Of a stretch of 64,000 bases of DNA, positions 1 through 26,866 are shown one piece after another. The first letter of the stretch is position 1, and the number at the start of each line of letters is the position of its first letter. Origin of the DNA: Botryllus schlosseri (lineage: Eukaryota). The stretch lies in the NCBI GenBank assembly GCA_051294905.1, contig CM119371.1, forward strand, positions 25,732,001 through 25,796,000. Direction: 5' to 3'. The translations under genes were made by a program, and so were the position numbers. The notes under the pieces are model-generated. The model was not told the origin of the DNA. It searched no databases and saw nothing but the letters and a program-made list of their open reading frames with translations.

Positions 1-1624
1 CTAAAGAAATTACTTGGATGTGTTTGAATTCTAGACATAGTTCCAATTTACTCGACGCAAGACCCAAGAACAACCGTAGTTTACAACCGTGCACACATAT
101 CCAAAATATCGCACACTATGCTATTCCTAAAGTACAAACACCCGATACAAAATATTACTTGTTGTGTTGTTGCGGCATCATCTTCACAATATCACCCTCA
201 ATACAAATGATGTTTATGTGTAACATGCTATTGATTTGAATCACACCCACCTGACGGAGGAGGATTTACTCAATCTTTACAAAATGGATATTGACCAACA
301 TCACATCATCGGATTGTATCTGTTTTGTTGGATATGAGTTATGTTAGTTTAACAGTAAACAAATTTCACCCTCTTGGATTATGAATTCAATGCGTTAGCA
401 GTCATTCGATATTTTGTTTGTGTCAACTAGTTACTTTGTATGTTACTCCACAACTCTTACAAAAGTACGAAGGATATTAACATCGCACTAAGTAATTAAC
501 TTTACTCGATATTCTCGCATTACGAAACTAAAGAATGGTTGGTTAGACTCTACAAACTGTTTCGATATCACAAGACCTTTATTGTCTGAATGGGTGTTCA
601 TGTATCTTAATAATCAAATAGTTCAACACAGAACTAGTACTAACAGAAACATCAGAGTTGTTTACACAAAAGTTTGTATATGTGCACAGTATGCGAATAC
701 CATGTGTAAGTCCAGCACAATTGCGGTATCCATCCGAGTTTAGTTAACACAAATTTATTACAACGGAGTCACGTAAACTTTCGTGAAAGAAAAGCATACT
801 CACTCCCAGAAGGTTATGTCAATGCCATAGCAGTACCCCAACAGCAAAGTACATATGTTTTCTAGTCACGGTCCTTACATCTTTCACATAGATCAATCTA
901 CTTTGCTAACGAAAAGTGCTGAGTCATCACATGATCACCCTCACAACAAAACAGCTGGTAGATATTATCATTCAAAATATTCCTAACCCTTTACACACCA
1001 GTGACAAATCATACAACGAATATGTTTTGTGGGTCGAATTGTTGTTCAGCGTCAAGTCTCCATGTTGGAGCGTACATTAAAACAGCGCAGTCACAATCCA
1101 ATTAAAACCACGAATCTATTTTCATTTCGTCACATACAGAAAAATAAATTTACTTTCCCAAAACATACTTGTAACCAATCGCTTTCATTAAACATACAAC
1201 ACCATAAAAGTATTTACTTTCTACAACATAGACATTCCGATGTAGTCAAGAAATATTTTTATTAATCAAAATCATCGACTTCTGTTTACGGCGTTAGTGT
1301 GTGCATGTCATATATGTGGGATCCGTATTAAAATGGACACGACGCGACTGAATGTAAGGAGATAGAAGTCTATCGCATAGATTTACATGCGGTCTTCGCT
1401 ACGGTTTCAAAAAACTAATCATCTCTTTTGCATTGATCGAGACCGGCCATGATTGTGTTTGTCATATGCGAATGATAGGGTTACTGTCAAATCTACATAC
1501 AACAATCTTAATCTTCTGACGATCATAATAGCAATTTCATTTTCCGCCCCTTCATAATTGTACAACTCGGTAACTACGTTTAACAAGACCAATCACACTA
1601 CCGGCGTCGAACACAAGATACCTA

Positions 1625-2465
1625 CCCAAGTAAAAATATCATTCTGGTTTGGACAACTGACGTTTACCTGTGTAAAATTATCATTTTCACTTGGAGGTCC
1701 ACCGTTACCTAACTAAAATACCATTGTCCTTTGGAGATTTATCGTTTACCCAGTGTAACAATCCCCTTTTCACTTGGAAATCTATTTTTGGCCTGAATAA
1801 CAAACCCCTTTTCACTTGGAAATCTATTTTTGCCCTGGATAACAAACCTTTTTCATTTGGAAATATATTTTTTCTCTTGGTAACAAACCTTTTTCACTTG
1901 GAAATATATTTTTTCTCTGGGTAACAAACCTTTTTCACTTGGAAATATATTTTTTCTCTTGGTAATAAACCTTTTTCACTTGGAAATATATTTTTTCTCT
2001 TGGTAATAAACCTTTTTCACTTGGAAATATATTTTTTTTTCTCTGAGTAACAAACCTTTTTCACTTGGGAATATATTTTTTCTCTGGTTAACAAACCTTT
2101 TTCACTTGGAAATATATTTTTTCTCTGGGTAACAAACCTTTTTCACTTGGAAATATATTTTTTCCCCGGGTAACAAACCTTTTTCCCTGAGCAACAAACC
2201 TTTTTCACTTGCAAATATATTTTTTCCTGGGTAACAAACCTTTTTCACTTGGAAATATATTTTTTCCCCTGGGTAACAAACCTTTTTCGCTTGGAAATAT
2301 ATTTTTCCCTGGGTTACAAACCTTTTTCACTTGGTGATCCGTCGTTTACCTGAGTAAAAATATCATTTTCCTTTGGGGATCTGGCGTTTACCCAGTGTAA
2401 CAATACATTTTCTCTTGGTCATCTAGCTTTTCCTAGAGTAACAAAACCATTTTCATTTTGAAATC
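1625..2465 (+). repeat. 41-bp minisatellite (AACAAACCTTTTTCACTTGGAAATATATTTTTTCTCTGGGT) with degenerate outer units
   Basis: Unit starts at 2049, 2090, 2131 and 2172 (period 41). Confidence 0.95.
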
Positions 2466-2551
2466 TGACAACCACACCGACAATTTGATATTTTTGTATT
2501 TTCTTACAGCGAACAGCGACAAAATATACACCAACAACGACTCCGATACAT

Positions 2552-3952
2552 TTGTCTAATCAAATATTCACTTGTGTTGGTGCATCCCATCAAAATCGTC
2601 GGTTACCCACATGCAATGCGCTCTTGTACACAGAAATGCATGTTTTGGAAAATTGGACAATAGGCTTCGATAGTTCTGTGATGTCCGGGTTCGTGCTTTG
2701 GATTTTCCAGAGTCAAAATGTCCGAATAAAACACCTCCTTGACGATGGTTGGTATGTGGATAACGGTGTTTGGAAAACGGTTGGATTTATGTCACCCATC
2801 GCGATAACAATTCCAGGTCGAGTTTTCCCCCGCGCGTTTACTATATTGTGTCTTTATTGGTCAATGTATGTCTCGACATTCAGTTTGAAATCGGAAACCC
2901 TGATAAGTATGTAACCGGATCCGGATATCAACTCTGAATCGATAAACCAATGAACAATATTCAAAGTAAACATGTTACATTCCACGAAAAAATACCATCC
3001 AGACATACGTCGCGCTTGTTTGCCCACATCAGTATACGCGTAAATGGAGGTGTGTGACATTGCATGCAATGTGTTGGTATACAAACATCGATCCACAGAC
3101 ATTATCATAGCCGGTAGTTTTGATGTAGATCGAATGTCATCACACCCGATAACAATACCAATAAGCCACATTGCCATGACTCTGAGTCTGCGCTATTACA
3201 TCGATATTTCGATACCGTTCACTGATTTACTCGATGGTGTTATCGTGTTGTAACATTACAAGATAGTCATGGCCCTATCTCCGGACAGACCACCCAGACC
3301 AATTGGATACATCGATCAATGTGTTGTCCACACCGAAGTTTTCTGCTGCAGCGTTTGACCATGGTGAACTATCGAAGTGGTGCTCGAAATGATTGCAATC
3401 AGTCTTTCAGTCACGATGCATGGATGTCGCTACTCCCACATAACGACTCCAGATAAATATCGTGCAAATCTCGGACTGATACTGTGATTCAATAAGGTGT
3501 GTTTTTGTGGAATAAAGACTGCAATCGTACACCACAATAGAAATCATAAAACACATCATCGTAAGGGTCCAGTTCGTCCGGTGTCATTTCGAAACGGTCG
3601 TCGCCACAAGAGATCGGTATCATTTTGAAACGACATCGTCACAAGTCTATTGACGCCGATTCTGTTGGTCATGTCAATCCGTTTCACAATCCACCGTTTT
3701 TCAACTCCCCGCACCATAGTGTTACGACACAGACAAGATGCGATGGTGGAAATAATTAATCACGGAAGGGGCACTTCAGTGTTGTTTGACATGGATTTTA
3801 CACCCGATGAACCTAACATTCGAGCGATGCATTGGAATGACGCTTGTATTATTGATGTCGAAGGAACAGAAATGTATCGATTTATTGGTTTCGCACATAT
3901 CCAACAAAAATCTGGGTATATGATTGTGCATGGTTCGCATATTCCACTGTGA
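2552..3952 (+). pseudogene. Possible decayed gene of unknown function
   Basis: ORFs 2552..2914, 3044..3253 and 3650..3952 share one frame and are separated by about eight in-frame stops. No domain recognised. Confidence 0.3.
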
Positions 3953-4775
3953 ACGCTCTATTGGTATATGTTGTACAGTTCACTTTCACCGTCGTGCGAA
4001 TAACCCATGTTACGGTTCCATGTTTGTGTGTCTGTCTGTCATACTTCAGATTGACTCAGAGTCATTGCAATGTGGCTTATTGGTATTGTTATCGGGTGTG
4101 ATGACATTCGATCTACATCAAAACTACCGGCTATGATAATGTCTGTGGATCGATGTTTGTATACCAACACATTGCATGCAATGTCACACACCTCCATTTA
4201 CGCGTATACTGATGTGGGCAAACAAGCGCGACGTATGTCTGGATGGTATTTTTTCGTGGAATGTAACATGTTTAATTTGAATATTGTTCATTGGTTTATC
4301 GATTCAGAGTTGATATCCGGATCCGGTTACATACTTATCGGGGTTTCCGATTTCAAACTGAATGTCGAGACATACATTGACCAATAAAGACACAATATAG
4401 TAAACGCGCGGGGGAAAACTCGACCTGGAATTGTTATCGCGATGGGTGACATAAATCCAACCGTTTTCCGAACACCGTTATCCACATACCAACCATCGTC
4501 AAGGAGGTGTTTTATTCAGACATTTTGACTCTGGAAAATCCAAAGCACGAACCCGGACATCACAGAACTATCGAAGCCTATTGTCCAATTTTCCAAAACA
4601 TGCATTTCTGTGTACAAGAGCGCATTGCATGTGGGTAACCGACGATTTTGATGGGATGCACCAACACAAGTGAATATTTGATTAGACAAATGTATCGGAG
4701 TCGTTGTTGGTGTATATTTTGTCGCTGTTCGCTGTAAGAAAATACAAAAATATCAAATTGTCGGTGTGGTTGTCA

Positions 4776-5575
4776 GATTTCAAAATGAAAATGGTTTTGT
4801 TACTCTAGGAAAAGCTAGATGACCAAGAGAAAATGTATTGTTACACTGGGTAAACGCCAGATCCCCAAAGGAAAATGATATTTTTACTCAGGTAAACGAC
4901 GGATCACCAAGTGAAAAAGGTTTGTAACCCAGGGAAAAATATATTTCCAAGCGAAAAAGGTTTGTTACCCAGGGAAAAAAATATATTTCCAAGTGAAAAA
5001 GGTTTGTTACCCAGGAAAAAATATATTTGCAAGTGAAAAAGGTTTGTTGCTCAGGGAAAAAAGTTTGTTACCCGGGGAAAAAATATATTTCCAAGTGAAA
5101 AAGGTTTGTTAACCAGAGAAAAAATATATTCCCAAGTGAAAAAGGTTTGTTACTCAGAGAAAAAAAATATATTTCCAAGTGAAAAAGGTTTATTACCAAG
5201 AGAAAAAATATATTTCCAAGTGAAAAAGGTTTATTACCAAGAGAAAAAATATATTTCCAAGTGAAAAAGGTTTGTTACCCAGAGAAAAAATATATTTCCA
5301 AGTGAAAAAGGTTTGTTACCAAGAGAAAAAATATATTTCCAAATGAAAAAGGTTTGTTATCCAGGGCAAAAATAGATTTCCAAGTGAAAAGGGGTTTGTT
5401 ATTCAGGCCAAAAATAGATTTCCAAGTGAAAAGGGGATTGTTACACTGGGTAAACGATAAATCTCCAAAGGACAATGGTATTTTAGTTAGGTAACGGTGG
5501 ACCTCCAAGTGAAAATGATAATTTTACACAGGTAAACGTCAGTTGTCCAAACCAGAATGATATTTTTACTTGGGT
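4776..5575 (-). repeat. Inverted copy of the 41-bp minisatellite, one unit shorter
   Basis: Reverse complement of 1625-2465. The mirror coordinate sum shifts from 7199 to 7241 across the array. Confidence 0.93.
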
Positions 5576-8500
5576 AGGTATCTTGTGTTCAACGCCGGTA
5601 GTGTGATTGGTCTTGTTAAACGTAGTTACCGAGTTGTACAATTATGAAGGGGCGGAAAATGAAATTGCTATTATGATCGTCAGAAGATTAAGATTGTTGT
5701 ATGTAGATTTGACAGTAACCCTATCATTCGCATATGACAAACACAATCATGGCCGGTCTCGATCAATGCAAAAGAGATGATTAGTTTTTTGAAACCGTAG
5801 CGAAGACCGCATGTAAATCTATGCGATAGACTTCCATCTCCTTACATTCAGTCGCGTCGTGTCCATTTTAATACGGATCCCACATATATGACATGCACAC
5901 ACTAACGCCGTAAACAGAAGTCGATGATTTTGATTAATAAAAATATTTCTTGACTACATCGGAATGTCTATGTTGTAGAAAGTAAATACTTTTATGGTGT
6001 TGTATGTTTAATGAAAGCGATTGGTTACAAGTATGTTTTGGGAAATTAAATTTATTTTTCTGTATGTGACGAAATGAAAATAGATTCGTGGTTTTAATTG
6101 GATTGTGACTGCGCTGTTTTAATGTACGCTCCAACATGGAGACTTGACGCTGAACAACAATTCGACCCACAAAACATATTCGTTGTATGATTTGTCACTG
6201 GTGTGTAAAGGGTTAGGAATATTTTGAATGATAATATCTACTAGCTGTTTTGTTGTGAGGGTGATCATGTGATGACTCAGCACTTTTCGTTAGCAAAGTA
6301 GATTGATCTATGTGAAAGATGTAAGGACCGTGACTAGAAAACATATGTACTTTGCTGTTGGGGTACTGCTATGGCATTGACATAACCTTCTGGGAGTGAG
6401 TATGCTTTTCTTTCACGAAAGTTTACGTGACTCCGTTGTAATAAATTTGTGTTAACTAAACTCGGATGGATACCGCAATTGTGCTGGACTTACACATGGT
6501 ATTCGCATACTGTGCACATATACAAACTTTTGTGTAAACAACTCTGATGTTTCTGTTAGTACTAGTTCTGTGTTGAACTATTTGATTATTAAGATACATG
6601 AACACCCATTCAGACAATAAAGGTCTTGTGATATCGAAACAGTTTGTAGAGTCTAACCAACCATTCTTTAGTTTCGTAATGCGAGAATATCGAGTAAAGT
6701 TAATTACTTAGTGCGATGTTAATATCCTTCGTACTTTTGTAAGAGTTGTGGAGTAACATACAAAGTAACTAGTTGACACAAACAAAATATCGAATGACTG
6801 CTAACGCATTGAATTCATAATCCAAGAGGGTGAAATTTGTTTACTGTTAAACTAACATAACTCATATCCAACAAAACAGATACAATCCGATGATGTGATG
6901 TTGGTCAATATCCATTTTGTAAAGATTGAGTAAATCCTCCTCCGTCAGGTGGGTGTGATTCAAATCAATAGCATGTTACACATAAACATCATTTGTATTG
7001 AGGGTGATATTGTGAAGATGATGCCGCAACAACACAACAAGTAATATTTTGTATCGGGTGTTTGTACTTTAGGAATAGCATAGTGTGCGATATTTTGGAT
7101 ATGTGTGCACGGTTGTAAACTACGGTTGTTCTTGGGTCTTGCGTCGAGTAAATTGGAACTATGTCTAGAATTCAAACACATCCAAGTAATTTCTTTAGCG
7201 ACTATGATTACATCTACTTTGATGAGAGGAAATTGAAAAATTCAAATGGATACTACTGACGAACACAAAGTGCAAAATGGTTTTATCAGATTTAGGTGTA
7301 CGATATCTTTTCGATTTCTTTACCAGAGTGTGTTTTACAAATAATTCCAGTTCCCCTAACTATAGGATACATTTGGCAAACATCGTGTAAATTGTTTCTT
7401 TGTGATGGTAACGACTTTCGGCGGCTTAGTTTCATGTCGGGAATTATTATTTGAGGGTTCAAAAACAATCAATACTACAAATGAACAACAATACAAAACA
7501 CGTTTAGTGAATTATAGTGTAGCAAGTACTTCCTTGATATTACGATTGTTGTGCACCAGACATTTCTAGCTGATTTGAATGCATCTAGCAAACATATTCC
7601 AATTTACTTTTGTAATGATCAAAGTCTTAGAGTGCGACCTCGTGATATTTTACATTTAGCATGTAATATAGAAAGTGTGAGCGGAGTTGAGTATTAATCG
7701 TGTACTTGGTGTAGTGCTTTGATATCAAAGAGATATTTTCACCCTGTGTAATGTTTCAATTCTCTGTTGTGAATTCCGACAGTAACGACATTGATGTAAA
7801 ATCCTCACCCGTGGTTATTGTAAGTGAATCCTAAACATCGCAACAGTCGGTATGGAAATCGAACGCGTGCGTACTTTTAGATAGGTGACACTAACAAGTT
7901 TATTACATCCGTGAAATACTCTGAAACGTCGATTCGTGATTGTGTTAGCTATATTCATCTTCCATATCTGTGGACACAAAGATATCCCGACTTTGGTTAC
8001 AACTCACTCGAAACGAATTGTTGCGGGCAATCTAAAAAAGCACAAGTCGAAGACGAATGATTTGATTTCAATGAACTAAAAAAGTCCTTTTGATGTTGGG
8101 TTTAATACAATTTGTACGACTATAACGAATCCGATTCCAAAAGTGCTATGTTACATTTAACAAAAAAGTTTGATGACTTGTATTCTGATATTGATAGATG
8201 TGAAAAGTAATATGACTAGTTTATAAAATCCCGATCATGTTCTTTGTCATGTCTGTGTTCAACAAATATGTGATCAATCCTTACCATTCGATATTAACTT
8301 TCGCAGTCGGCGTAAGCGATAATTTGTTGAAGTAACAATATCGACGAGTTCAATAATAGTCTCCATCGATGTATTCGAATAATCTGTCAGCTACAAGTGG
8401 ATTAAAAACTTGATGCCGTTTTGTGGTTAACTCAAGTCGGTGATCGCGTTTGTGTTGATTTGAGGAATGATCATGACGAGTTGGTCGGGTAAATTAGATA

Positions 8501-10029
8501 ATGTGGTTGTAACTATGACCGTAAAGAGTTGCTGACATTCCAATAAGACGAGTTGGTGGTATATGCCTAAAACCGAACTTGATATGTTTGTTGGTTGTAG
8601 TGATTACTTGCGTAGTCTTGACTACTTTTCGTAACGATACTTTTTGTTTTGGTTGGGTAAGTTACAAACGGATTGACTTGACAAGGTTTTTTGTATTTTA
8701 CTCTTTTGTGTATGGGAATCACTCGATTGCAACAAAAAATAACCTGATAGTTTGTTCAAGGTTTCGACAAATAGATTGAAATATTCCGATTTAACTCATC
8801 GCGTCACAACTCGATCGCGGTATGCATAAGTGGTTGTCAAGATAGAAATATTTACAACAACGGGCGATATTTCATTGATTGATTCTATTGTGTGTAGTAA
8901 CACATTAAAATATCGCGATAGTATTTACTGAAACTCTATTTGACAAATGGAAAACTCAGTCGTGAATAGAGTTGTAAGTTTCAAGGATTGTTTCAAAGTG
9001 TAATCTTGAAATGTGACTGGATCAAAGTTGGTAGTCATGTTTGTCAAACCTATTTCTATTCACACTATGTCAAGTCCAAATATTTCATTCTGGATTATTT
9101 GGATTTACCTTTAGTACATCTCGCGAATGGATTCCGATACCGTACTATAACATTCTTAATAATACGGGTTCGAGGGTTTTCATGATAGAGTTGACGAGTG
9201 ATAAGATGCGTGTTTTTGTTAAGAGTTTGATTTCATGTTGATAAAGACAATAACTGTATAATGCACATACTTGTGATTCTTGATTCTTGTAGAATTATAG
9301 TTGGTATTGATTCTATAAGTGTGAAAACAGCGGCGTGGAATGTGCGAATAATTCGATGTAGCTGAAAGTCGGCGTCAGTAATATTCGGGTTATGGTCGAA
9401 TCAAAAGATCACGAAAAGATTTCTCAAAATAATTAGAATTGTACCGAATTAACACATTCAAATACGAATCAACTCGGTTTGTGTAGTGAATTTCATTTCG
9501 ATTTGACAAATTGATACATTGATTGAATATTCTCATAATTCTTATCGTGCAACTAAAGTCAGCCGCTGTTCGAAGTGTCAAAACATATAGCGACCACCAG
9601 AAAGTGTCAAATTGTTGGTTTTCGAATCACCGTCTGCGACGGCTCTGTGACAAACTAATTACCGAAATATTACCTTGTGAGCGATCGGTATGTCTTTTAC
9701 ACCAAATCACTAAAATGGTTATACCCGAGACATTATCTTGTTAGCGATCGCGGGATTTGTAATCTATTTTACACTTTTTGAAGTGTTAATTTACGAGCGC
9801 GGTTATTTGTTGGTTGCTTTTCGTGTCGCTGCTGAATACTGAATACTCCTGAATGTAATAGCGCTGACTGGATTAGTGTAATCGATAGTAGCATGTGGCT
9901 GGTCGTGAAACAATTCCACACGCAGGTCATTCGAAATATAGGTCGCACTGCTTAATCCTCACAACAAGCCACGTTTCCGTTTGTGCGGTTATTGTTGGTG
10001 ACTATTCAACACCACGCGAGAGATGGTTG

Positions 10030-10700
10030 AAAGTGCGAATCACGACCGCACCCATAAGAACACATGGCGAATCACCAACACAATCTATACGCGAAAGTAC
10101 GGCATGCGAAAGTACGATGTGCGAGAGATGCCTACACCCGAAAGTACGATATGCCGACGCAACCATAAGAACACATAGCGAATCACCAACACAGCCTATA
10201 CGCGAAAGTACGACATGCGAAAGTACGATGTGCGAGAGATGCCTACACCCGAAAGGGCAATTCACGGCCGCACCCATAAGAACACATGGCGAATCACCAC
10301 AGATCCCGTAAGAATACATGACAGGCACATCACCGACGCAGCCTATACCCAAAAGGGTGCCGTCACCAGAGATACCATAAGAAACAATGGCACATCACCA
10401 GAGATCCCATAAGAACCAATCGCACATCACCAGAGACCGCGTAAGAAACAATGACACATCACCAGAGATCCCATAAGAACCATTGGCACATCACGAGCGA
10501 TAGGGGGTCTGAAAGGGTACCATCATCACTACGAGTTTTCACGGCAGGTCATGAGCGAGCCCTATACCTGAAAGGGTGGGGTCACCAGAGATCCCATAAG
10601 AAACAATGGCAAGTCACCAGCGATAGGGGGTCTAAAAGGGTGTGGTCACCAACACGAGTTTTCGCGGCAAGTCACGAGCGGGCCCATAAGAACCCCATTG
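10030..10700. repeat. Subterminal tandem repeats: ~111-bp units, then 32-bp units, sharing a CCCATAAGAA core
   Basis: 111-bp units at ~10051, 10162 and 10273. CACCAGAGATCCCATAAGAAACAATGGCACAT-like units at 10364, 10396, 10428 and 10460. Confidence 0.9.
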
Positions 10701-10728
10701 CGTCATGCGAGCGATCGTATATACTACT

Positions 10729-11312
10729 TACGGCCCACTTTTCGTTTGGTCAAAGGCAATTTGACGTTAATGTGTGACCGGCTTGTCCAGCATTAAATTT
10801 GATAAAACGGGTATCAATGGGAAGTTATCAACGTATTGATTGCTAAAATATGGATTTTATTCTGTTGGTGGCCCTAGAACTCCCCAAAAAACCTCGAATG
10901 TTGCATTGTAAGTGAGTTTGGTATCGTGACGCAACGATGCCGTCTGAGCAGCTCAGGAGCAAATGCGCACAAGAGTGAGATGTGAATGCTCAATCGATTG
11001 CGCAGCAATGGCCAACACGCTTGCAGCTTGCGGTGCTCCTCACATGCTCCAAGACATCAATGCTGCATCACAATACCAAACTCACTTGCTTATTTTGGGG
11101 AGTTCCAGGACCACGAGCAGAATAATTTTTTATTTTCGCAATCAGTACCGCAGTAGCTTTCGATTGATACCCGTTTATCAAATTTCATACTCGGCAAGCC
11201 GGTAAAACATTACCGTCAAATTGCCTTCGACCAAATGGAAAGTGTGATGTACACTAATTTCACTGAACCGTGAGATTTGCTGGTGTCCAAACCATATAGG
11301 ACGCCATGGTTT
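10729..11312. mobile_element. Long-inverted-repeat MITE, left end truncated at the Polinton-like terminus
   Basis: 10740-10900 is inverted to 11090-11240. Related copies lie at ~14330-14600 and 35424-35977. Confidence 0.75.
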
Positions 11313-12572
11313 GTTGAGTGCGTGGTTGAACCAAGTCACAAAAGTCATTCTCTGATTGTAACATTTGACGCGACGACTGCGAGTACCAGTAATTCTACAG
11401 AAGGTCGCGCCTCGCGCTCTAGTCCAAATTACAATTTTCAGTCACAAATCATCAACGGGTCATGTATTGCGATCATAAACAAGTAATGTCACGTAATAGT
11501 TGATCTTCCACTGCGTGGTAAATTTTGAAAGTGATGTATTAGTGAAGTTGTGCGAGTAGTTTCAGGCTTCTGGAGTAGTTTTAGAGCGAGTTTTAAGTTC
11601 TCAAAGTAAAAAAAAATTCGAGTTAAATATTGTCGAATACTTCGAAATCCAAAATGCCGTCGCGGGCCGCACAAAATGGTCTCGCGGGCCGCGTGTTTGA
11701 GACCTCTGCTTTAGTCCATCGATGGTGAATCTGAGGCAGTGGAAGGGAAATTATGTGGCCGTATACACTTATTTGGAATAGGATGTGTTGGCAGCCGTCA
11801 ATATTCAAATTGAATTTACGAATTGATTCCCTAATTCATGAGAGGCTTGCATTATTCTTGAAATTCTGAAAGGGACTATGAACAATTTGGCCACCCAAAG
11901 ATGCAGCAACGGCATTGATAACTTTGCTAAATTTTCTTAGACACCCCCTATGCATCAACTCTACCGATGAAGGATAAATATTTGATTTAATATGCGAAAA
12001 TTTACTAATATCAAAGATGAAATACACTCAAGAACATTGAGAAATTTTTCGCGCTTCGCGCGACTATAATTTGTATGCTTATGGTCATTCAGAAATTGAC
12101 TAATCAGTAATCACGATGTGCTCGTCGCCCATGTTAGCGTTGTATTGACATAGAGTTATCAAAACGTGGCCGTTAACCAGCGTTGCCTGTTTGTATATCG
12201 ATATAGAGGCCATGCGGCCCGCGGCCTCGGCAAATTTTGAAAAGTGGCCCGCGACCCGTTTTGAGTTGGCGACCCCTGGCCTACATCGATGGCATGTATT
12301 GATTTGAAGTGCGTTTTGGTGCCAGTAGTGTGTGTATATCTACTAGTAATATATATGTCACCATGTATGCACACGGATTTATTGTGGCGTCACATATGGT
12401 TGCACGAAATTACGATTAGCCGTCTATAGCAGTGATTCTCAACCTTTTTCACTTCGCGGACCGGTAAAATTTCAAAAGATATTCGGCGGACCGGTGGACC
12501 TTAAAAATTCAAATTAACCCAAGATGTAATGCATGCAAATGCAGCCGTTTTTCTGCAAGTATGGTGCTAGAG

Positions 12573-13415
12573 CAGGAGTGGCCAACCGTTTTGCTCTTCA
12601 CGGCCGCATCTCGATTACTTATATGGATTCCTGGACATAGTCGTAATGAACTAACTGGACGCGAAAGACCTGTGTTCAACTGTGCATGTCCATTTCCGGC
12701 GAACTCTGGACTTATCAACTTTTTCATATCGTCTTGATATACGCACCGAATTCACTACATAGTGGTCATATCAGAAATACTCACTGGGAGCGATCATGAT
12801 CGTGCGAAGCGCGAAAAATTTTTTACGCGTCACGAATGAATTTCGTCATTAATATTCGTAGTTTCACATATTACTCCTAAATATTTATCCTTTCTCAGCC
12901 AATGCGATCAGATTCATCGGTAGAGTTGATGAGGGAGTGTTTTCGAAAATTTAGGGCAAGTAATAAATGTTGATGCATCTTCGGGTGGCCCAATTGTTAT
13001 TATAGTCACTTTGATGGGTGATGTTATTTCTTGACCTCCCATCAGGATTGTCGGTATAGTGGAAAGATCTTGGAATCTCCCAACCGCACCAGAAACAAAT
13101 TACTTTTGCAACGATCGCACGATTCCAAGTTGGTAATTCTATATCAGGTGCATCATTTTCCTCCGCCCTTCGCATCTGTAGTGTGGGGCTCGGATTGCAA
13201 AGGGCGCTATACGGTTATATAAAAAATCGAAAATGAAGTCGCATTGAATCGTGCACAGCGCCAAGAAAATTTCAAAATTATTGAAAATATATCAAAAATT
13301 CGGCAGTCTATCCGTAATTTCAATTTTCAAGTCGACGGCCGCCAACAAATGCTAGTTGAAATAATTGTCTACGGCCGCCCAAATTTCCTTTTACGGCGGC
13401 AGGGAGGCCACCCTG
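12573..13415. mobile_element. hAT MITE (family C) nested in R
   Basis: CAGGAGTGGCC...GGCCACCCTG termini; TSD TGCTAGAG/TACTAGAG; homologous to 49173-49676. Confidence 0.8.
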
Positions 13416-13538
13416 TACTAGAGAGTGACATTTTGAGGGTTTTGTTCGTAATGGAATATGTTTGTGATGGTATTCATGTGATTTCACTTTAGTGTCTGCT
13501 GAGTCGAGGTAAAATTGAACTGTCCAAATAGACATAGG

Positions 13539-14882
13539 CAGGCCGTGTTATTTTTGGCATATGCCAAAACTGCCAAAAATAACTTATTTTTGGCATTTTT
13601 CGATTTTTATTTTTGGCTGTTTTGGCATTGCCCTCTAAATAGATAGTTTCAGCCTCAAATTAGTCACAAAAACGCTTTATTTGGGCTAGTTTGTCAAAAG
13701 ACACCACAAAATGTGCAGCATCCGCGTATAATCAGTGCCAACAAACAATAAGAAAAAACCTAACGATTACATAGGTTAATAATATCAAACGAAACCGCAA
13801 AATGTGCAGTACCCATCGGAATCGGTGCCAATAAGCAAAAAAAGAAAGAAAAGCCTAACAAACACGCTCAACAGCTGATTGTTACAGCTGTTGAATAGAC
13901 TTAAATCGTTTGCACTGTAACAGTGCTTCCAAACTCAGGTCAGCTAAGTTTCTCCTAAATTCATTTCTCGCCCAGCGAATCTGGGAAATATCGGCTTCAA
14001 CAGTAGCCGTTGAGGGAAAGAATGTTGCCAGTCATCCACAAAAGGTTTTCGGTGCTTCAAAATCTTAGGACGGCCGAACCGGCTTCCAGGCATCATGAAA
14101 AGAGATCACTTCGCCAGTGCCATGGATCTCATCGCGGAAAGAATTTTCTTCCCGGTCCTTTTCCATGAGTTTCCTGTGTTGTCTCTCAACACATTCTATT
14201 TAGTAGCCCGACTATCATTTCTCCTTCAGTCTACCGATATATTTTCGGTGGACTTTTGTCACTTCAGGAGGCTTTAATATTACCAACTCGCAAGGAAGAG
14301 ACCTGGGAAGGTTAGCTTGTTTAAGAACATTGACGCAACAAGACTGTCTGGCAAAACGAGACTATGCAGCTCAGAAATAGCCAGACAGTTTGTTGCGTCA
14401 CAATGTTCAACTCGATCACAATGCAAAAATCGTGGTTGATTTTGGGGGTTCCAGTTCCATGAGCAGAATATAATTTATATTTTAATAATCAGTACTGTGG
14501 CAGCTTCTCATTGATACCCATTTTATTAAATTTAGCGCTCGACAAGCCGGTCAAAAATGCTCGTAAAATTGCCTTTGGACAAATGGAAAGTATGACGTAA
14601 ACCAAATGCGGTCAACCGTTCAATCCCGCTGTGCCCACACAACACCATGCTTTCACCCCTAATGGGTGGGCTGGACCCAGATTAAGAAACTTGCCTTTCA
14701 CAAACGCTCTTCTCGCTTGTAACGTGATCCTGTTAACACAACACCATGAACGAAATACACTATTTGGCAGGCCGTGTTATTTTTGGCATATGCCAAAAAT
14801 TGCTTATTTTTGGCATTTTCAAATTTTTAATTTTGGCAGTTTTGGCATCTGGCTCCTGAAATGCCAAAAATAACACGGCCTG
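13539..14882. mobile_element. hAT-type element with 22-bp TIR CAGGCCGTGTTATTTTTGGCAT and an extra internal left end at 14768
   Basis: Perfect 8-bp TSD GACATAGG at 13531-13538 and 14883-14890. Confidence 0.9.
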
Positions 14883-15464
14883 GACATAGGCTAATTTTGC
14901 TTCAAAGGCCGTGGATTAACCGAACACGGCAGCTCGAATAATATTCTTCTCTTCGACAATATCCAGAGATGGAGCGGTTTGGAGTAGGACCAGGCACCTT
15001 GTCGAGCTGTCTTGCTCAAATCCCACTACTACCAGACGTAGCCTACTACGAGTACAAGGCGCCGCACGAAAACACCTGACAACAGCGATACCTGGCCATC
15101 CACAAAACTAATAAATCGAAAACGAATGATTGCACGAATTGCGCGGTTTAGCGAGTCAGGTCTTACTTGACGAGTCGCTCGTATGTCCTCACCAGAGACA
15201 GCGTGATTTTTAAATTAAATAGAACATGTTTCCGAGCCTAATCTTACCTCACGTAGTTCTGCAGCAGTGTAAAATTTGACGTTATATTTATTTTACCAAT
15301 GGACAAGCCTTCAACATCTTGCATTATAAAATTAGGTATAAAATCCTAGTATTCCTCGCAGACCGGCAGTAAAGTCGTCGCGGACCGGCGGTTGAGAACC
15401 ACTGGTCTATAGTACTTGCGGTTACAAGCGTCCATTTGTGTCGCAACAACTGTTTTGGCTAGCT

Positions 15465-15790
15465 CAGTGGTTCCCAACCTTTTTCGACTCATCGCCCCCT
15501 TTTCAGGCTCAGCGCCGATCATCGCCCCCCAGATTTTGCGAACAGAAAAATCGGTATACAATCTGTAATCATCGGCGGGTTGACTAAAAAAAAGATCAAC
15601 TTCTCAACTTTTCGGCTCGTTGTCGAATTTTACACTTTTGCAACTAAATTTCCGTGGTTTGACTAAAAAAATGTCATTCCGACGACTTGACTACAATATA
15701 GCCGTTATAACGCGTCATCGCCCCCTTCGTAATTTTGCCCCCCCCCCCCTAGGCAGGCAAATCGCCCCCTGGTGGCGTTGGAAACCACTG
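15465..15790. mobile_element. hAT MITE (ATCGCCCCC-rich family)
   Basis: CAGTGGTTCCCAAC TIRs; perfect TSD GGCTAGCT; second copy at 57190-57542. Confidence 0.9.
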
Positions 15791-16454
15791 GGCTAGCTGC
15801 ATGACTGTGTGTCCACTGGCCAACGTTGCGTGAATACTCGCTAATTCTGCTTGTCACTAGTATTTATACTGATCGCTTTTAATGATCACAGAACGAATGG
15901 GTAGTTTGTTATGCTCATCCCTTCACCAAGCCAAATTAACAAAGAAGTGCGAGCCGTTTTCAATTGAATGGTTGTCGGACCATGTGAAAACGGAAGACAT
16001 AAGTAGGTACGCCCGAATACCTTTAATTACTATTTAGGGGTCCTATACCTTTTCCGACACACCTGACTCGATCAGCTCAACCGGTAAATCTGATTACGTG
16101 AGCAGAGAGAGAGCATAAAAATTACTTGCAATATTCCAACGCAATCATGAATTAGATAAATTTTTTGCGCTTCGCGCGTTCAGGCGTCACACCTACCCAA
16201 CGGACTCCCAATGTAGATGAAAAGCAGCGGCCAAAATACACAACCCAAGGGGGGCTGGGGGCGAAGCCCCCCGGAAGTTTGATATATCGCCCTATGGGGG
16301 GCCTGGTTGCGCACTGTTGTCCAAGGGCCTGCGCAGTGAGTTGGCGTGTTTGCGCGGACTCGTGAAAAATTAGAGGGACATTCCTTATGTACATGTACAT
16401 GGTATCGGTAAAAGTCAATACCTGTGATAAACCTAATACCACTAAATATAGTTC

Positions 16455-16726
16455 TGTTACTTTATTTGGATTTAAACGGAGATATGATATTCTTTTTCGC
16501 CTGCACCATCGAGATGCTTTGACGACGGAGTTGCGATACGGCCCCATGAGGTCATCTAGTCTGCGCCCCCGTTTTTTTCTCCTCCATGCTATCCGTGATT
16601 GCTGAGCGCCTAGCAGGATAGCTGCGGATACCAATTTTCGAGTCTTTGGTATGACCCGGTCGGGGATCGAACCCACGACCTACCGCTCGAGAAGCCGGAC
16701 GCATAACCATTACACTATCTCGCAAG
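16455..16726 (-). mobile_element. tRNA-derived SINE, possibly with a Meta/MESC-type central domain
   Basis: Minus-strand A box TAGTGTAATGG and B box GGTTCGATCCC, followed by GGTCATACCAAAGACT...CCTGCTAGGCGCTCAGCA. Paralogue at 40480-40651. Confidence 0.85.
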
Positions 16727-19457
16727 TCTTCTATGTGTAAAAATAACGAGTAGATTGAACTTTTAAACTTTATTGTACGACTGAGCCGATTTTCTATCCA
16801 GCCACTAGAGCAAAAATGAGATATTTCAGTAAAAATAGCCCCTTGAGTTATCTTCATAACAAGAGGTCCTTTTAAAAAAACAAGGTCGTATTCGAAATCA
16901 GTGCCCTTCAGAACCCCCACAACCACTCTTACTTTGTCTACCTAAAAATATGTTTTGACCAGTGTTATCATTTCAACTATAACATGCAATTTCAATTGGT
17001 AGGTGAAACTGTATTATATAATCATACCAAAGACTTGAATAATAATCCACTTACCGAAAACATTCCTACGAGCGCTTCTTCCCCTGCTCTGCGGAGTGAT
17101 ATATCCTGAACGCAAATGAAAGGAATCGGTCGGATAATTGTTATTTGTATAAAAAATCAGTGCTAATGATACATGTATCAAAAACAAACGGCGAAATTGG
17201 GCATTTCGCCTATTTTCACCAGAGCGTAGGTTGCCAATTTGTTAATAACAGTTGAAGATATGACTTTACTCCCATTTGAATGTGCTAACACTAATCAAAT
17301 GTGGGAATTTTATTGTTAGGGATGGTGTGAACCTCTGAATGGTTCAAGTTCGTGCGAACGCGAACCATTTTGAAAGGTTCTGTGTGAGCCCGAACGTGAA
17401 CCTCATGACGTTAGGTGACGTCATATTGCTAACTCCAACCCTATATTTCAGTGAAGTGATAGCCTATATTAATATACACGATACCTAGCGACGAGTAGGG
17501 CCACATAATGCCACAATACATAAGTTCATAACGTTTTAAACGTCGCCAAATGTATCAACTGGGCAATCAAATGATATAATAATCCCATAAAATCAATATC
17601 TTCCGTCGCCTTGCCAACAATTTCGACGAGGACTTGCAAGGGAATATAAGCTTACGCCTTAATGGTCTAGGCCAGTGGTTCTCAACCGCCTGTCCACGGA
17701 CCGGTGCCGGTCCACGACGACTTTCCAGCCGGTCCGCCAGGCATTTTACAATTTTATACCTTAATTTCAAGATGCAATATGTTGAAGACTTATCTATAAT
17801 GATTATTGATAAAATAAATAAAACATCAAAATTTAAACTGATTGAGAACTTCGTGAGGTAACATTAGGTCTGGAAACATTTGACTTGAAGTTCAAGCAGT
17901 GTCATTTGACGACATGCGAGCGACAAGTACGAGATGACTCGCCAAATTGCGCAGTTAGCACGATGATGCAGTAGCCTGGGCCCTATCGTAAATGCCGCAC
18001 CACAAACCCTTAATTGAAGGGACCGAGCTTGAAGGGGGCATAAAGGTATTTCTTAAATGAACAAAAATTATACCCTGTTTTAGTAAAAACTTCATCCAAT
18101 TGTTTTCATTTTTTTACGCTTTGTCCTGTTTTGTGTCACTAAATATCTTGATTATTGGGTGCCCTTCTGCCAAGAGATACGCATGATTTATAAGATTAGG
18201 CATTTTCGGCGTCAGTCATTGCCGCACCACGACGCACCAACACATGATGAAGTTTAGGCTAACTGCCCTTTGTAAGTCAAATTGTCCAGAGGCACCGAAA
18301 TGACTGGAACTGAATTTCGTTGTCATGGCAATCTGTAACCCACAGGAACAACGCCATCCCACAGAGAAAAGTGATTTTCCAGTGAAGAAATAGCAATTTG
18401 GAATCATGTGCGTCTTTTTGCTTAGAACGCTTGTGCGATTTCAATATCTATTCACTATATAACAGACAGTAGGTCATGAATTAATGACAAGCAACGAAGT
18501 AAATATTGTAACACACCAGCTCGAATATGTTTAATTTGATTACATACCCTAAATTTTCCAAGACGACACCTCACTCAGCCCTACCGGAGAATTTGATAAT
18601 TCTGAAAGGATAAAAAAATTATAACAATATCTACGCAATTACCAATATTATTGATTGATTCGGTCATGAATTATAAGTACTGGTGAAAGCATCCATCTAA
18701 CTGTGGGGGCCCAAGACCAACGTTTTTCGGGGGGTTAACTGACGACACGTCTTTTCGGCACTGGTTTTGTGTATAGCCATTGGCCATTTATAGCTGTTGC
18801 TAGGTGTTTTCGTGCGGCGCATTGTATTCGTAGTAGCAAGAGTAGCCTCGCCTGGTGGTAGTGGCTAATGAACATTCAGCAACGTAGCACGACAAGGTGC
18901 TTGGTTCGACTCCGAAACACTTCTTCTCTCGATATTGTCGAAGAGAAAAGATTATTCGAGTTGGCGTGGTCGATTAAATCCACGCATACTGCGCGAAAGA
19001 CTGTAAACCAGTGGTTCTCAACCTTTTTAACCTCGCGGACCGGTAAAAGTTCAAAAAATATTCGGCGGACCGGCGAACTTTCAAAAATCGAAATCAACTC
19101 AAAACGTGTAGTAGCCTATGCAACTGTTTTATGCAAGTATATGATGCTAGAGAATGACATTTGAGGGGTTTGATCGTAAATAAAGATGTCCATGATGGTA
19201 TCCATCTGATTAGTGGGTCTGCTGAGTCGAGGTAAAATTGTCCTGCCAAAATAAACGTGCTAGCGCCGGGAGTCGTTCACAGTCTTCCACGCCGAAGGTC
19301 GTGGATTTAACCGACCACGTCAACTCGAAAATTGATATTCTCTTCGACAATATATCGAGAGAACAAGCGCTTCGGAGTCGAACCAAGCACCTTGTCGTGC
19401 TACCTTGCTTATTGCCGACAACCACCAGTCGTAGCTTACTCTGGCTATACTATGAAT

Positions 19458-20444
19458 TAGGAATGGTGAGAACGTGACGTTCACGTTCGCGTTCTGTGTG
19501 TCAACCTCGGAAATTTAGAGGGTGACGTTCACAAACGAAGCTTCGTAGGTTCTAGGCTGTGAAACTTTTTAATATATTAAAATTTTTCACATAACATCAT
19601 TGGTTCAAATTCTTTGCTTTTCAACTTTGGGCTACTATGCATGACGCTGGCAATATAAAAAAAATCAACAATAATCGAGCATGCACCTTGTCAATCTCAA
19701 ATATTTCACTAGCTTTGAGAAAATAGTTTGATCTAAATATCCAGCTTTCCGTTTGTGAATACTTAGTGACTCTCTACTTCGAGCATGACCCTCAGTCCCA
19801 CAACGTCAAGATGGAAATACGCTACATCTAGGACTAGGTAGTCAGCGAATCATCCTCCATATTCCACCGATCAATGAAGTTGGTATGAAGAATACATCAC
19901 TGTCTACTGTGAAAAATCTAACAGGCGTATGGGATCGATCAGCATTTTATATGTTTATCGTATCGTAAAAACCAAATCTGTGCGATCGGGATGTTGGTTA
20001 CTGTATAACGTGTTAATAGAGTAATATCGGAAGCAAGTATACAATCCCGTTCTACACTTTATCTCAATATCAGTATATCTATAGTCAGATGTGTCAGACA
20101 TTGTCAGGTCTGGAACAAATCGTTGAGGTGTAAGCTTGTATTCCCTTGCAAGACCTCTTCGAGATTATTGGCAAAGCGACGGAAGATATTGATTTTAAGG
20201 GATTCATATCAATTGATTGCTCCAGATGACACATTTGATGACTTTAAAGTCAGCCCGTACTTCAGCATTGTGGCCTCAGTCGTCGCTGTACATTAATATT
20301 TCACTTCACTGAAATATAATAGGTCGAAACTTGCAATTTGACGTCAAGTAACGTCATAGGTACACGATCGCGTTCACACAGAACTTTTCAAAAAGATTCG
20401 CGTTCACACGAGCCTGAACCTATCAGAAGTCCATACGATCCCTA
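19458..20444. mobile_element. hAT family D non-autonomous element
   Basis: TAGGAATGG...GATCCCTA termini; perfect TSD CTATGAAT. Confidence 0.88.
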
Positions 20445-20833
20445 CTATGAATGCAATGCGCCGCACGAAAACACCTGACTACAGCTATACCTGGCCAGTG
20501 GCCATCCACAAAATCAGGGCCGATAGTCAGCCTAATTGCCCAAATACGGTAGTCTTGGGCCCCACAAAGCGATACACCAAACTTTTAGCTAGGGGGCATC
20601 GTCCCCAGACCCAACAGTTGGTTGTTTCCGCCAGGACTTGCGAACACATTCAATCTACTGAGGATAAGCAGATAGTTTTCTATAGGTTATTCATGACTGA
20701 ATCGGTCAATAAAATTGTTAATTTCATATATATTGCTGAAAAATTGTACTCTATCAGAATTATCAGATTTTCCGGTAGAGTTGATTGAGGTGTCGTGTTG
20801 GAGAATTTAGGGCACGTAATAGATAATAATTAA

Positions 20834-22498
20834 GGCCGTAAGGTGCAGCTAGACTTGCAAAATTTTCAAATTGCGATATTTTCTAAACAGTTGATCCTAG
20901 ATTCTCAAAAATTGATGTGTGAACTATTCATACCCAACTTCATATACTGTATCAATTTCAGCATTTCACAATAATTCCTTGGGCCAAAATTGGGGGGAGA
21001 TTGGTTAATCGGACGGTTAGTACGAGGAAACGCCTGTCTCATCGATGGATGCTAAGAGATTCTAACCAATGCTTTATAAAGTGTCCTGAGGCCTGTAGGC
21101 ACCTGGTGAACTACTTGAAACTAACGAATTTTCGAAAAAGTTGATAAAATATTTGTTTTGTACCAGTACAGTGCCGGATTTTCGATTTTTTTAAATAAAA
21201 TTCAGATCATAAGTAGCATTGCAAGTACACTGAAACTCCTAGAGCAAAAACAATAAGTTCACCAGGTAGAACAGTCTTACTGCTTGTACTGAGCCAAGTT
21301 TGATAAGAATTGAAGGTCTTCTGATATCAAATTTTCCTCTCCCCGTGACATCATATTACGAAAAACTAGAAATGGGAGAAAATCAACTTTGAAAATTGAA
21401 AAATATTTTGGTGAAAAAGTAAAGCAGGTATTTAAAATTTGTTGCTTTTAAATGGTGCAGGCAGGCTTTAATCAGTACATAGCCAAATTTGAAGACAATT
21501 GAATGTGCCTAAATGCAAAATAAGTCGTGTAGAGTATGAGTGATTTGATCACTTTTTACTCAAAACTGCTATACCACACTTAAAAAATTTGCAAACCTTG
21601 ATTGGAAAATAGTTAGATGTTGTCAAAATGAAACAACATATCAAGAATACTGCGACATTGTCAAAATACCAATTTCAGTTGGTATGAGTCAACATACTAC
21701 ACTCATATTTCCCCCCGAGATCTTTCAAACATACAATTTTTAGCATCAACATTAGCAGCAACATCATTATGCATCCGGCACTAATTTGAGTTGCATAACC
21801 GTTATGCATAGCCTGTGCAGTTCCAATATCCTTTGCCGGATGAGCCACAGTCAGGCAATTCACAATATTTAGAACAACTGCATCAAAAATGTAGAAATTC
21901 CGAGGAAAAACGATTCCGCCGAATCCAAACCACCATTATCAGATGTTGAAAGCTCCAATCTTTTTCAAAGGATTTCTTCGATTATTCAGTTCAGGAACCA
22001 CTGGTTCTTTTCTATCATGGTTTCATCTTTTCCTATGCCAAATGACTTCGTAGTGTATGGCTTTGTCCTAATCGTGAATTAAGCTATCAACAATATACCA
22101 ATGCATCTTGAAAAATATACAATATGATGAACAACGCTCACAATGTCAACATCAACAGCTTTCAGCTCTTCCCAGGTTAGCGATCGGCAGCTAGGCTGCT
22201 GGCCAGCTGTATGTTTTGATAGTCACGCCTCATCGATCAGACATATGGCTCTTCTATTTATTGTATAAAATCAGCATTGCAGAGTGGTTATAGACAATTT
22301 CGAGCGAGTTTGAATGAACGAAAGTGTATGGGGGTGACTTTCTCAGAAAATGGGATATTTCAAATCGTATTTTAACATACTTCTAATTCGAAATCAGACA
22401 AGAGCAATGCATTTTTGAAAAGAGCTAGTTTCATAATTTAAGATTCTGCAATAAAAAAAATTTGGAAAATTTTGTGATTCCAGCTGCACCTTAGGGCC
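20834..22498. mobile_element. Kolobok-like non-autonomous DNA transposon
   Basis: TIR GGCCGTAAGGTGCAGCT / AGCTGCACCTTAGGGCC, flanked by TTAA and TTCA. A TTAA target with purine-purine termini fits Kolobok. Cys-containing remnant on the minus strand near 21770-21865. Confidence 0.65.
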
Positions 22499-23784
22499 TT
22501 CATATTCGGGTGGGCCTCTTGGACTAATTACCTAATTAGTCATTGCCACTCATTTTTCGTCAAATGACACGGGTTGAACTTCAAGTCAAATCGAACATGC
22601 TCCCAGACCTAAAATGTTACTTCACGACATTATGAAGGAGATTAAAAATTGGTATTTGTTTTATTTTATCAATGGACAAGCCTTCAACATACTGCATCCT
22701 GAAATTTTGTTATAAAATTGCAAAATACCTCGCGGACCGGCTGGAAAGTCGTCGCGGACCGGCACCGGTCCGCGGACCGGCGGTCGAGAACCACTGCTGT
22801 AAACGGCTCTCGGCGGTACCAAGTATGTCTGGGAAGGCAATTTTACCTCGACTCAGCAGACTCCATCACCGGAAAATCACATGGATACCATCACAAACAT
22901 AATAAATTACAATCAAAATTCTCTAGCACCACATACTTGCAAAAACGGCTTTAAACAATACATTTTGGGTTAATATCGATTTCTGAAAGTCCACCGGTCC
23001 GCCCAATATTTTGGGTAGTAGTATATAAAAGCTAGAGCAGAGGCGCAGCAGCATTTGATCACGTGACAATTTTGAATTTCAAATCAAACAGAGAAAAAGC
23101 GCGCGAAAGAGTTATGTCAATACCACTTATATGCGGGACAATGGGTGACAATAACGGGTGTGTGAGGAGAACGAAGCGTGACAGCATAATGGGGTGTGTG
23201 TGCTAGCGACCGTTATGGTATTGCACAATGGGTAATACCCTAGTCTGAAACTAGCGATATTGCACCATACACAGCCTTGATCACGTGACAAGTTTGCAAT
23301 GACGCGCGTCTGAATTTACTTGATGATAGTGGGAATCTCTCACGTGTGTCAAAATGTATGATTTGTTTGAATTTTACGGTAATGAAGCAGGCGAGAGCGC
23401 TACGTCCAATCAATCGCCTCGGCTCTTAATTAAACAAACGCGTCGCCCGCCCGCCCGTCGCGCTTCATTGAAAAGTAACGTTTATTGCGTCTCTAGCGCT
23501 TGCATGAGAGGACAATGGGTGACAATAGATGAAATGATATGACGTATATAAGAGTATGTTTTCAGGCGCTCCAATCTACAATGGGTGACAATAGGTGTCA
23601 ACACTTGACGCGCGTCCGAAGAGGTGAAATGTCATTCACGGTAATGTATGTACAATTTACTTAATGATGCTGGGAATCTCTCACGTGTGTCAAAATGTAT
23701 GAGTTGTTTGAATTTTGAGGTAATGACGCAGGCGAGAGCGCTAAGTCCAATTAATCGCGTCACCTATTATTAAAACAAACGCAT

Positions 23785-24269
23785 CTAATTATTATTTATA
23801 AATAATTTGAAGACGGACCGCCCATCGCGCGTAAGATACTTTAGATCAGACATGGAAAAATCCCCAACAACAACAATATATACTAAAGATAACACTCGGA
23901 AGAGAGAGAGGAAAAGAGGGTGAATGCTCTTGAGGTATATTCTACCCCTGGCTTATTCCGAGTGAAATAAGTTTGCATTACGTTAACGGAATGTATGTTC
24001 AAAAAGTTTAACTAATTATTATTTATAAATAATTTGAAGACGGACCACCCACCGCGCGTAAAATACTTTAGATTAGACATGGAAAAAAACCAACAACAAC
24101 AACATATACTAAAGATAACACTCGGAAGAGAGAGAGAGGAAAAGAGGGTGAATGCTATTGAGGTATATCCTCCCTCTGGCTTATTCCGAGTGAAACAAGT
24201 TTGTATTACGTTAACGGAATCTATTTTCGAAAGTTTAACTAATTGTAATGTATAAATAATTTGAAGACA
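23785..24269 (+). repeat. ~227-bp tandem duplication (2 units plus a partial one), left arm only
   Basis: CTAATTATTATTTATAAATAATTTGAAGACGGACC at 23785 and 24012, partial at 24239. Confidence 0.9.
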
Positions 24270-26194: not shown

Positions 26195-26866
26195 TAGGGC
26201 TCTTCAAAAATTACTTTTTTTCTTCTCACATCGTACTGGCTACTTGATATTATTGTTAGGTTACCAAATTCAAGCCTTCACACAAAATTTGGTTCAATTC
26301 CAACCAGTAGCCGCATTGCTACAGGAGAAGAAAGTTTTTATTTATTATACAGAAAGAAGTAGCAAAAAATTTGAAAATTTATTGTTCACCCCTTGAAAGT
26401 GTTAAGTTGTCTATAGAAACGATGTTCACCAAATTTGGTTCAATTCCAATCAGCGGAAGCGGAGATATTGCAGTGGAAAAATTTGAATTATGAATAAAAT
26501 TTTATTTACGGTGAGCAGTTCTCTGATTTTTATTATAGTGGTACCCACTGTAAATACTATTTCATTCAAATCCAAATTTTTCGATGGTAATAGCTCCGCT
26601 CCCACTGGTTGTATTGAACCAAATTTGGTGAACATCGTTTCTATAGACAGCCTAACACTTCCATGGGGTGAACAGAAAATTTTCAAATTTTTTTTTGCTA
26701 TTTCTTTTTATATATTAAATAGAAACTTTCTTCTCCTGTAGCAATGCGGCTACTGGTTGGAATTGAACCAAATTTGGTGTGTAGGCATAAATTAGGTAAC
26801 CTAACAATAATATCAAGTGGCCAGTACGATTTGAGAAGAATAAAATGTCATTTTTGAAGACCCCTA
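26195..26866. mobile_element. Palindromic MITE with TAGGG termini (hAT-type)
   Basis: Long inverted arms; TSD ATGTTTAT/ATGTATAT; related to 44888-45393. Confidence 0.8.

Follow-up and report, generated by a model that had tools for sequence, protein, structure and literature searches.

We analysed a 64,000-nucleotide stretch of the Botryllus schlosseri genome (contig CM119371.1; hereafter, the window). Positions 1–10728 are probably most of a helper-dependent, snap-back derivative of a Maverick/Polinton: a young copy of an abundant palindromic family, without detectable core genes and with a predicted length of about 14 kb (Table 1). The original prediction, of a snap-back, defective-genome-like Polinton derivative, stands as far as it describes a multi-copy, Maverick-ended palindrome that lacks core genes. 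The element is not wreckage devoid of genes, since the loop carries a conserved open reading frame (ORF) of 93 aa.

The palindrome was originally seen to run off the left edge of the window. Indeed, the repeat is still present at position 1, so the palindrome extends past the edge. When 1–3188 is compared to the reverse complement of 4053–7198, the 3,146 aligned columns contain 11 substitutions, including 8 transitions, which gives 99.65% identity (98.3% if gaps are counted). The arms also differ by a 1-bp indel and by one additional 41-bp tandem unit on the left. If the element is symmetric, then its predicted size is 14,258 bp, of which 93.9% would be palindrome, with arms of about 6.7 kb. 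(The size is predicted because the left end and its target-site duplication (TSD) fall outside the window; it comes from arithmetic on a left end beyond the window, with rough depth ratios as backing.) The block was also correctly described as free of MITEs up to a sharp end at 10728: none of 1–10728 has dispersed-repeat matches to the rest of the window, versus 45% of 10729–23016 and 27% of 33719–64000.

Table 1. Features of the palindromic element and its right flank (window coordinates).
Feature	Position	Strand	Basis or remarks
Left arm, visible portion	1..3188		Reverse complement of 4053–7198
41-bp tandem array, left arm	1623..2466		Main block of 10.4 units
Central loop, unique, 864 bp	3189..4052		Lies between the arms; both junctions recur in P0005 and P0007
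Loop ORF, 93 aa, conserved, likely beta-rich	3671..3952	+	Six clusters of full-length relatives; conservative-substitution test
Right arm, portion with mirror image in the window	4053..7198		Arm alignment
41-bp tandem array, right arm	4775..5576		Main block of 9.4 units
Right arm, outer 3,530 bp	7199..10728		Repeat-free block; about 2.4x loop depth; mirror predicted upstream
Subterminal direct repeats	10029..10685		Periods of 111, 32 and 123 bp; CCATAAGAA x8
Terminus with Maverick (AGT)2 motif, reads AGTAGTATATA	10718..10728	-	Motif as given in PMC8097293; same at both ends of 23017–33718
TACGGC, predicted right copy of 6-bp TSD	10729..10734	+	Sequence
Host MITE, older, flanking	10729..11311		Hairpin 10729–11251 (self-identity about 70%) and a 60-bp tail on one side

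We then considered the terminus. Maverick ends are described as (AGT)2//(ACT)2, which is the commonest motif, or (AG)3//(CT)3 (PMC8097293). The right end, which is the one within the window, reads ...TATATACTACT and is followed by TACGGC, so it matches the (AGT)2 motif. The 10-mer AGTAGTATAT occurs three times in the window, on either strand, and every occurrence is at the end of an element. In 100 order-2 Markov simulations, the mean was 0.22 occurrences and the maximum was 2. This agrees with the Polinton-type terminus that was originally proposed, and this end motif of 6–11 bp is the sole tested link to Mavericks. Another element in the window (23017–33718) has AGTAGT at both ends and long terminal inverted repeats (TIRs) and is otherwise unrelated to the palindrome; its arms are unequal and it has no matching TSD. 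On the other side of the terminus, the flanking MITE had been expected to be missing its left end. However, a second copy of the MITE (35445–35975) also has a tail of about 60 bp on one side only, so the one-sided form may be normal, and the MITE's left end is an unreliable test of the insertion.

We did not find Maverick genes. Searches with Pfam at its cut-offs gave no family in 82 stop-to-stop frames or in 12 frames read through stops, and so no match to protein-primed DNA polymerase B (pPolB), retroviral-type integrase, packaging ATPase, protease, or capsid. (Strongly decayed genes, or capsid genes that no model describes, could escape these searches.) The same frames gave no remnant of a DDE transposase, and Pfam found no gene for a single-stranded DNA-binding protein in the arms of this copy. 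The longest stop-to-stop frame within 1–10728 has 141 codons. A PHROGs search of 19 frames had no hit under E = 0.01, and Rfam had no matches across the window. The terminal pattern had no matches in viral_contigs or in metagenome_contigs. Because the element has the Maverick end signature but none of the Maverick genes were detected, it is likely to hitch-hike on a Maverick helper.

The family is abundant and multi-copy, and the present copy is young. We placed 164,317 contigs from DNA run X1 and 779 from run X7 on positions 3000–11500, and the X1 contigs on the element show hundreds of variant sites. The left and right arm-loop junctions are both present, in diverged form, in two other public contigs: P0005 has an unbroken alignment over 4260–3967 (89.8% identity, 98 aa) and P0007 has one over 3044–3256 (88.7% identity, 71 aa). 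Together, the contig counts with their variants and the diverged copies in other assemblies indicate multiple copies, as originally expected, presumably spread over different loci. The summed depth of the arms relative to the loop is 3.2 for the paired part and 2.4 for the unpaired part in both DNA runs, where summed contig depth is not the same as copy number and individual bins lie between 0.85 and 5.5 times loop depth. Could the palindrome be an assembly artefact, from a fold-back read or a head-to-head mis-join of haplotypes? The original prediction named this as a way to fail, and no single contig spans the whole stretch. But both junctions are found in other assemblies at 85–90% protein identity, the differences between the arms are mostly transitions plus one repeat unit, and two runs with different organism labels both show greater depth on the arms than on the loop. 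We consider an artefact to be extremely unlikely. It is also very unlikely that this copy is truncated or rearranged at the left, with symmetry that breaks off shortly before position 1 even though the family itself is palindromic. The DNA upstream of position 1 is outside the window, and the neighbouring element at 23017–33718 does have unequal arms without a TSD; nevertheless, the copy's 99.65% arm identity marks it as young, and its symmetry is uninterrupted up to position 1.

The variants also bear on how the arms evolve. Among the best-supported 40 of 446 variant rows from the placed contigs, 14 sites lie in 4053–7198, and this copy carries the X1 minority letter at 13 of them. The two arms agree at 11 of the 13 (partner positions 119 to 2835), and the other two are private to one arm. 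We conclude that the arms evolve together. This sharing by itself says nothing about when the arms were homogenised. Long inverted repeats can pair in situ, and the family could be a dead end: a snap-back product that had one past burst, with arms homogenised by chromosomal gene conversion and no replication cycle. Few RNA reads fall on the element (253 and 677), as a dead end would have it. However, with 11 differing sites, at least two of them arm-private, the arms are not being held identical now. Also, relatives of the loop protein reach down to 45% identity, which suggests a long-lived lineage instead of one burst. Overall, a dead end seems unlikely. An improbable alternative is a cut-and-paste element of the Foldback, Galileo, or Mutator-like kind, with very long repetitive TIRs and a DDE transposase, in which AGTAGT is coincidental or borrowed. 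The arms have tandem arrays and subterminal repeats, which resembles the long TIRs of Galileo and Foldback with their internal repeats (PMC3573991), and Pfam found no remnant of a Maverick protein. But Pfam did not find a transposase remnant either, and the terminus carries the motif most common among Mavericks (PMC8097293), which is also at both ends of the unrelated element at 23017–33718. More broadly, the Foldback types FB, Galileo, and Tetris are described as having very long, internally repetitive arms and a short loop, like the palindrome, but they have a different end motif and are families with cut-and-paste transposases (PMC3573991, PMC4079207).

How does a snap-back Maverick derivative compare to known systems? 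Autonomous Mavericks/Polintons (PMC8097293; an anole element, PMC3014272) share the (AGT)2 end and inverted repeats, of which the inner 3,146 bp are observed here. In a survey of vertebrates, Mavericks had 6-bp TSDs, TIRs of 46–1,447 bp, and intact sizes of 12.7–24.6 kb (PMC8097293). The predicted 14.3 kb is within this size range, but the inverted repeat is at least 3,146 bp (predicted 6.7 kb), and instead of matches to pPolB, integrase, ATPase, or protease, the loop carries a single small, unrelated ORF. Butterfly polintons are reported to have TIRs of about 2 kb that contain genes, and there are polinton-related insertions without polB (bioRxiv 10.1101/2025.02.07.637071). So Polinton TIRs can grow inward and gene-depleted forms can still be mobile. 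The butterfly TIRs carry core genes, whereas the repeat here is predicted to be 94% of the element and core genes were not detected. Adeno-associated virus has defective genomes of the snap-back type (PMC8235507), in which one end is duplicated in inverted form and which depend on a helper, as is proposed for the palindrome. But those genomes are parvovirus-derived and are described as arising afresh in each infection, while the palindromic element is heritable, integrated, and diversified, and has its own conserved ORF. Our literature search, which did not extend to Repbase or subscription journals, turned up no published account of Polinton derivatives that are palindromic over nearly their whole length.

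We infer that the element is mobilised in trans by an autonomous Maverick. A single strand freed from a genomic copy would fold back into a stem of about 6.7 kb and a loop of 864 nt, and the duplex end bearing AGTAGT could be the origin for the helper's protein-primed polymerase. While paired, one arm may be repaired or re-synthesised from its partner, which would explain why lineage-specific changes are present on both arms. Insertion of the double-stranded product by the helper's integrase would then create a 6-bp duplication, and the arms would drift apart afterwards (11 substitutions to date). More speculatively, and we have real doubts about this, the element could be a true satellite of a Maverick virus. 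Its genome would be a single-stranded snap-back hairpin, copied by the helper's protein-primed polymerase and kept near the helper's length by packaging in its capsid, and the small conserved protein encoded in the loop, the one unpaired region, would aid in taking over or restraining the helper.

A racket-like single-stranded intermediate is a proposed model of Maverick/Polinton replication (relayed in PMC4196379). If the snap-back reading is correct, then this nearly all-stem element records the racket step in its own sequence. The model could be tested computationally, because the mutations that the arms share, and their polarity, can be read across many genomic copies. It could also be checked by looking for snap-back DNA of about 7 kb. 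Near-perfect palindromes of several kilobases are generally considered to be unstable; apparently, they can reach abundance in an animal genome.

Finally, the loop ORF adds a small protein family that has so far lacked annotation. Its relatives form six clusters of full-length proteins (90–95 aa, 45–88% identity), and the start and length are retained in relatives with as little as 45% identity. Comparison of these sequences suggests that the ORF likely encodes a small protein that is maintained by selection. As caveats, gene-called databases contain open frames only, and a test for conservative substitutions did not reach significance with either of the two nearest relatives (P = 0.58 and 0.08). 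A role in the replication or packaging cycle seems the most plausible, but it is a guess. Structure models of the loop protein are poor (pLDDT 38 and 45) and gave nothing in Foldseek at E ≤ 0.001. Sequence patterns gave an impression of an OB fold, as in single-stranded-DNA-binding proteins, for which models of this quality are too poor a test. A sequence search of PDB had no match and matches in the ESM Atlas were weak; the Atlas model of one relative (P0013) is closest to AMIN beta-sandwich domains (TM 0.57). An alignment of the loop protein gave no confirmed loci from 107 pattern matches in viral_contigs or from 120 in metagenome_contigs. Nor do we claim that one long, decayed gene spans the left junction: the frame at 2489–3952 has 9 stops in 488 codons, versus 24 expected (P = 0.003, with bounds picked after inspection), but a profile search gave just three short pieces, and most likely two of these are translated from adjacent copies. 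Among the few RNA reads on the stretch, 97% and 54% in the two sets continue into unlike sequence. The bins over the loop ORF have few reads, with more of them in the orientation that sense RNA would give.

The left arm of the main element (1-3188) is the reverse complement of 4053-7198 in a self-comparison of the window. In a global alignment, the two arms have 11 substitutions (8 are transitions) across 3146 columns, or 99.65% identity, with one 1-bp indel; the left arm also carries one 41-bp tandem unit more than the right. Both comparisons bear out the original prediction of a palindromic centre around a loop of 864 bp. That prediction also described a repeat-free block reaching a sharp end at 10728, and this held up: the window's dispersed repeats have no match in 1-10728, but cover 45% and 27%, respectively, of the host DNA at 10729-23016 and 33719-64000. 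The dinucleotide composition of the block is unlike that of the flank as well (for example, AC is 1.24 vs. 0.90). If the symmetry continues, the full element would be 14,258 bp long, 93.9% of it palindrome. Its left end and TSD are predictions, because both fall upstream of the window.

The inner end of each arm has the quasi-palindrome GACTC-N-GAGTC (4053-4063 and 3178-3188), exactly on the arm-loop boundary. This could be the mark of a switch point, or chance. Other family members skip about 215-225 bp of the arm at 6788-7003 (in the public DNA runs X1 and X7) and about 75 bp at 5868-6037 (in X1), so arm length differs between copies.

The sole visible end carries a Maverick motif, TATATACTACT at 10728, and then TACGGC. 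The window contains the 10-mer AGTAGTATAT three times (0.22 expected), always at an element end. The hairpin of the flanking host repeat (MITE) begins exactly at 10729. This MITE was thought to have lost its left end, but a second copy likewise has a tail on one side only, so a missing upstream MITE end is an unsafe prediction. Judged by self-identity (~70%, vs. 99.65% for the element's arms), the MITE far predates the main element, so we still expect that the element inserted at the MITE's edge, with the predicted duplication of TACGGC.

Features of the main element, the flanking repeat and the second element (window positions)
Feature	Positions	Strand	Size	Remarks
Central loop	3189-4052		864 bp	
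Loop ORF	3671-3952		93 aa	
MITE copy 1	10729-11311			adjoins main element's right end
MITE copy 3, partial	near 14382-14619			continuation differs from copies 1 and 2
Palindromic MITE-like insert in second element	26193-26868			self-comparison
Partial third arm copy in second element	27440-27707		268 bp	self-comparison
C2H2 zinc-finger frame in second element	29782-30219	-		four Pfam stretches, E=1.7e-16
MITE copy 2	35445-35975			one-sided ~60-bp tail, as in copy 1; no Maverick-type end alongside

The palindromic feature is real, and other, diverged copies of it exist. Part of 2500-11400 is present in 20 of the 24 listed runs (nine studies, two organism labels); mapping onto the stretch covered four runs. 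For 3000-11500, there are 164,317 contigs in X1 and 779 in X7. The element's sequence is highly repeated (its copy number is high) and variable. Relative to the two loop bins, the paired arm has a summed depth of 3.2 and the unpaired outer arm one of 2.4, in X1 and X7 alike (tandem-array and terminal bins are left out, single bins range from 0.85 to 5.5, and depth is not a copy number). These ratios fit two arms per loop over the whole length. Independently of depth, a search with an X-read-through frame over the left junction found protein matches in two other public contigs. One (P0005) spans the right junction without a break (4260-3967, 89.8%) and the other (P0007) spans the left junction (3044-3256, 88.7%). 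Diverged copies elsewhere thus have one and the same arm end on either side of their loop.

We compared this copy to its family. Among the 40 best-supported of 446 variant sites, as chosen by the tool, 14 lie within 4053-7198, where the arms pair. At 13 of these 14 sites, the letter in this copy is the minority one (79-100% of X1 depth differs). The letter is the same on both arms at 11 of the 13 listed sites and is on the right arm alone at two. So in this tool-chosen subset, family-rare changes are mostly on both arms, over the whole visible length. This is expected if an arm is repaired or re-synthesised from its partner in each mobilisation cycle, with drift only after insertion. The sharing is compatible with such homogenisation, but by itself is silent on timing.

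Autonomous Mavericks have core genes, while none were detected in the main element, which places it outside that group. Pfam gave no family at the cut-off for 82 stop-to-stop frames (3000-10728 has 89 frames that reach 42 aa, of which 81 were scanned and the 8 in the tandem array omitted; one further frame was added) or for 12 six-frame read-throughs with X. The same scans detected the zinc fingers of the neighbouring second element. The loop ORF is conserved: its full-length relatives fall into six clusters (90-95 aa; 87, 66, 60, 62, 59, and 45% identity), and their alignment starts at a shared methionine and has 27 invariant columns. Four of the six relatives show more conservative substitutions than random change would give (P = 0.027, 0.035, 0.002, and <0.001); for the two closest, the effect is not significant (P = 0.58 and 0.08). 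The ORF is likely a real gene, with the caveat that the databases of relatives contain open frames only. We found no family, PDB, or viral match for its protein, and fold predictions are beta-rich but unreliable (pLDDT 38 and 45). RNA reads on the main element are few and insufficient to judge expression.

Small, strand-biased piles of single-cell RNA reads (depth 12-24) lie at 4420-4703, 8680-9247, and 10100-10383. Many of the reads continue into unlike sequence, and they probably stem from related copies. Also, a frame at 2489-3952 (+) crosses the left arm-loop junction; over its 488 codons it has only 9 stops, and it closes with the loop ORF (the frame's bounds were set post hoc). It might be left over from the parent sequence; if so, the left arm is the original and the right arm is the copy.

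The main element likely works as a Maverick-dependent element with a putative helper. A single strand released from the element would snap back into a long stem, and the arms could be repaired one from the other, as is known for adenovirus panhandles. The helper's protein-primed polymerase might use the AGTAGT duplex end, as in the proposed racket model of Maverick/Polinton replication (relayed in PMC4196379). The putative helper's integrase would insert the product with a 6-bp duplication, as described for Mavericks (PMC8097293). The same source gives 12.7-24.6 kb for intact vertebrate Mavericks; the predicted 14,258 bp lies inside this range, and, speculatively, a packaging constraint would fit.

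TIRs reach 1447 bp in vertebrate Mavericks (PMC8097293) and ~2 kb in butterfly polintons (bioRxiv 10.1101/2025.02.07.637071), whereas the visible inverted repeat here, at 3146 columns, is longer. An anole survey describes non-autonomous Maverick copies as apparently absent (PMC3014272). In the literature we searched (Repbase, subscription journals, and supplements were outside its scope), no Maverick/Polinton derivative that is palindromic over almost its whole length turned up.

The second element (23017-33718; 10.7 kb) has AGTAGTATAT at both ends and no DNA similarity to the main element past the terminal 10-11 bases. It has no TSD (the flanks are TTGGGT and GAGGTC). Its arms are 97.0% identical over 1677 aligned columns, and its left arm has about 1345 additional bases at 23730-25073, including a 227-bp tandem. 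Its zinc-finger frame has more finger-like text past stops.
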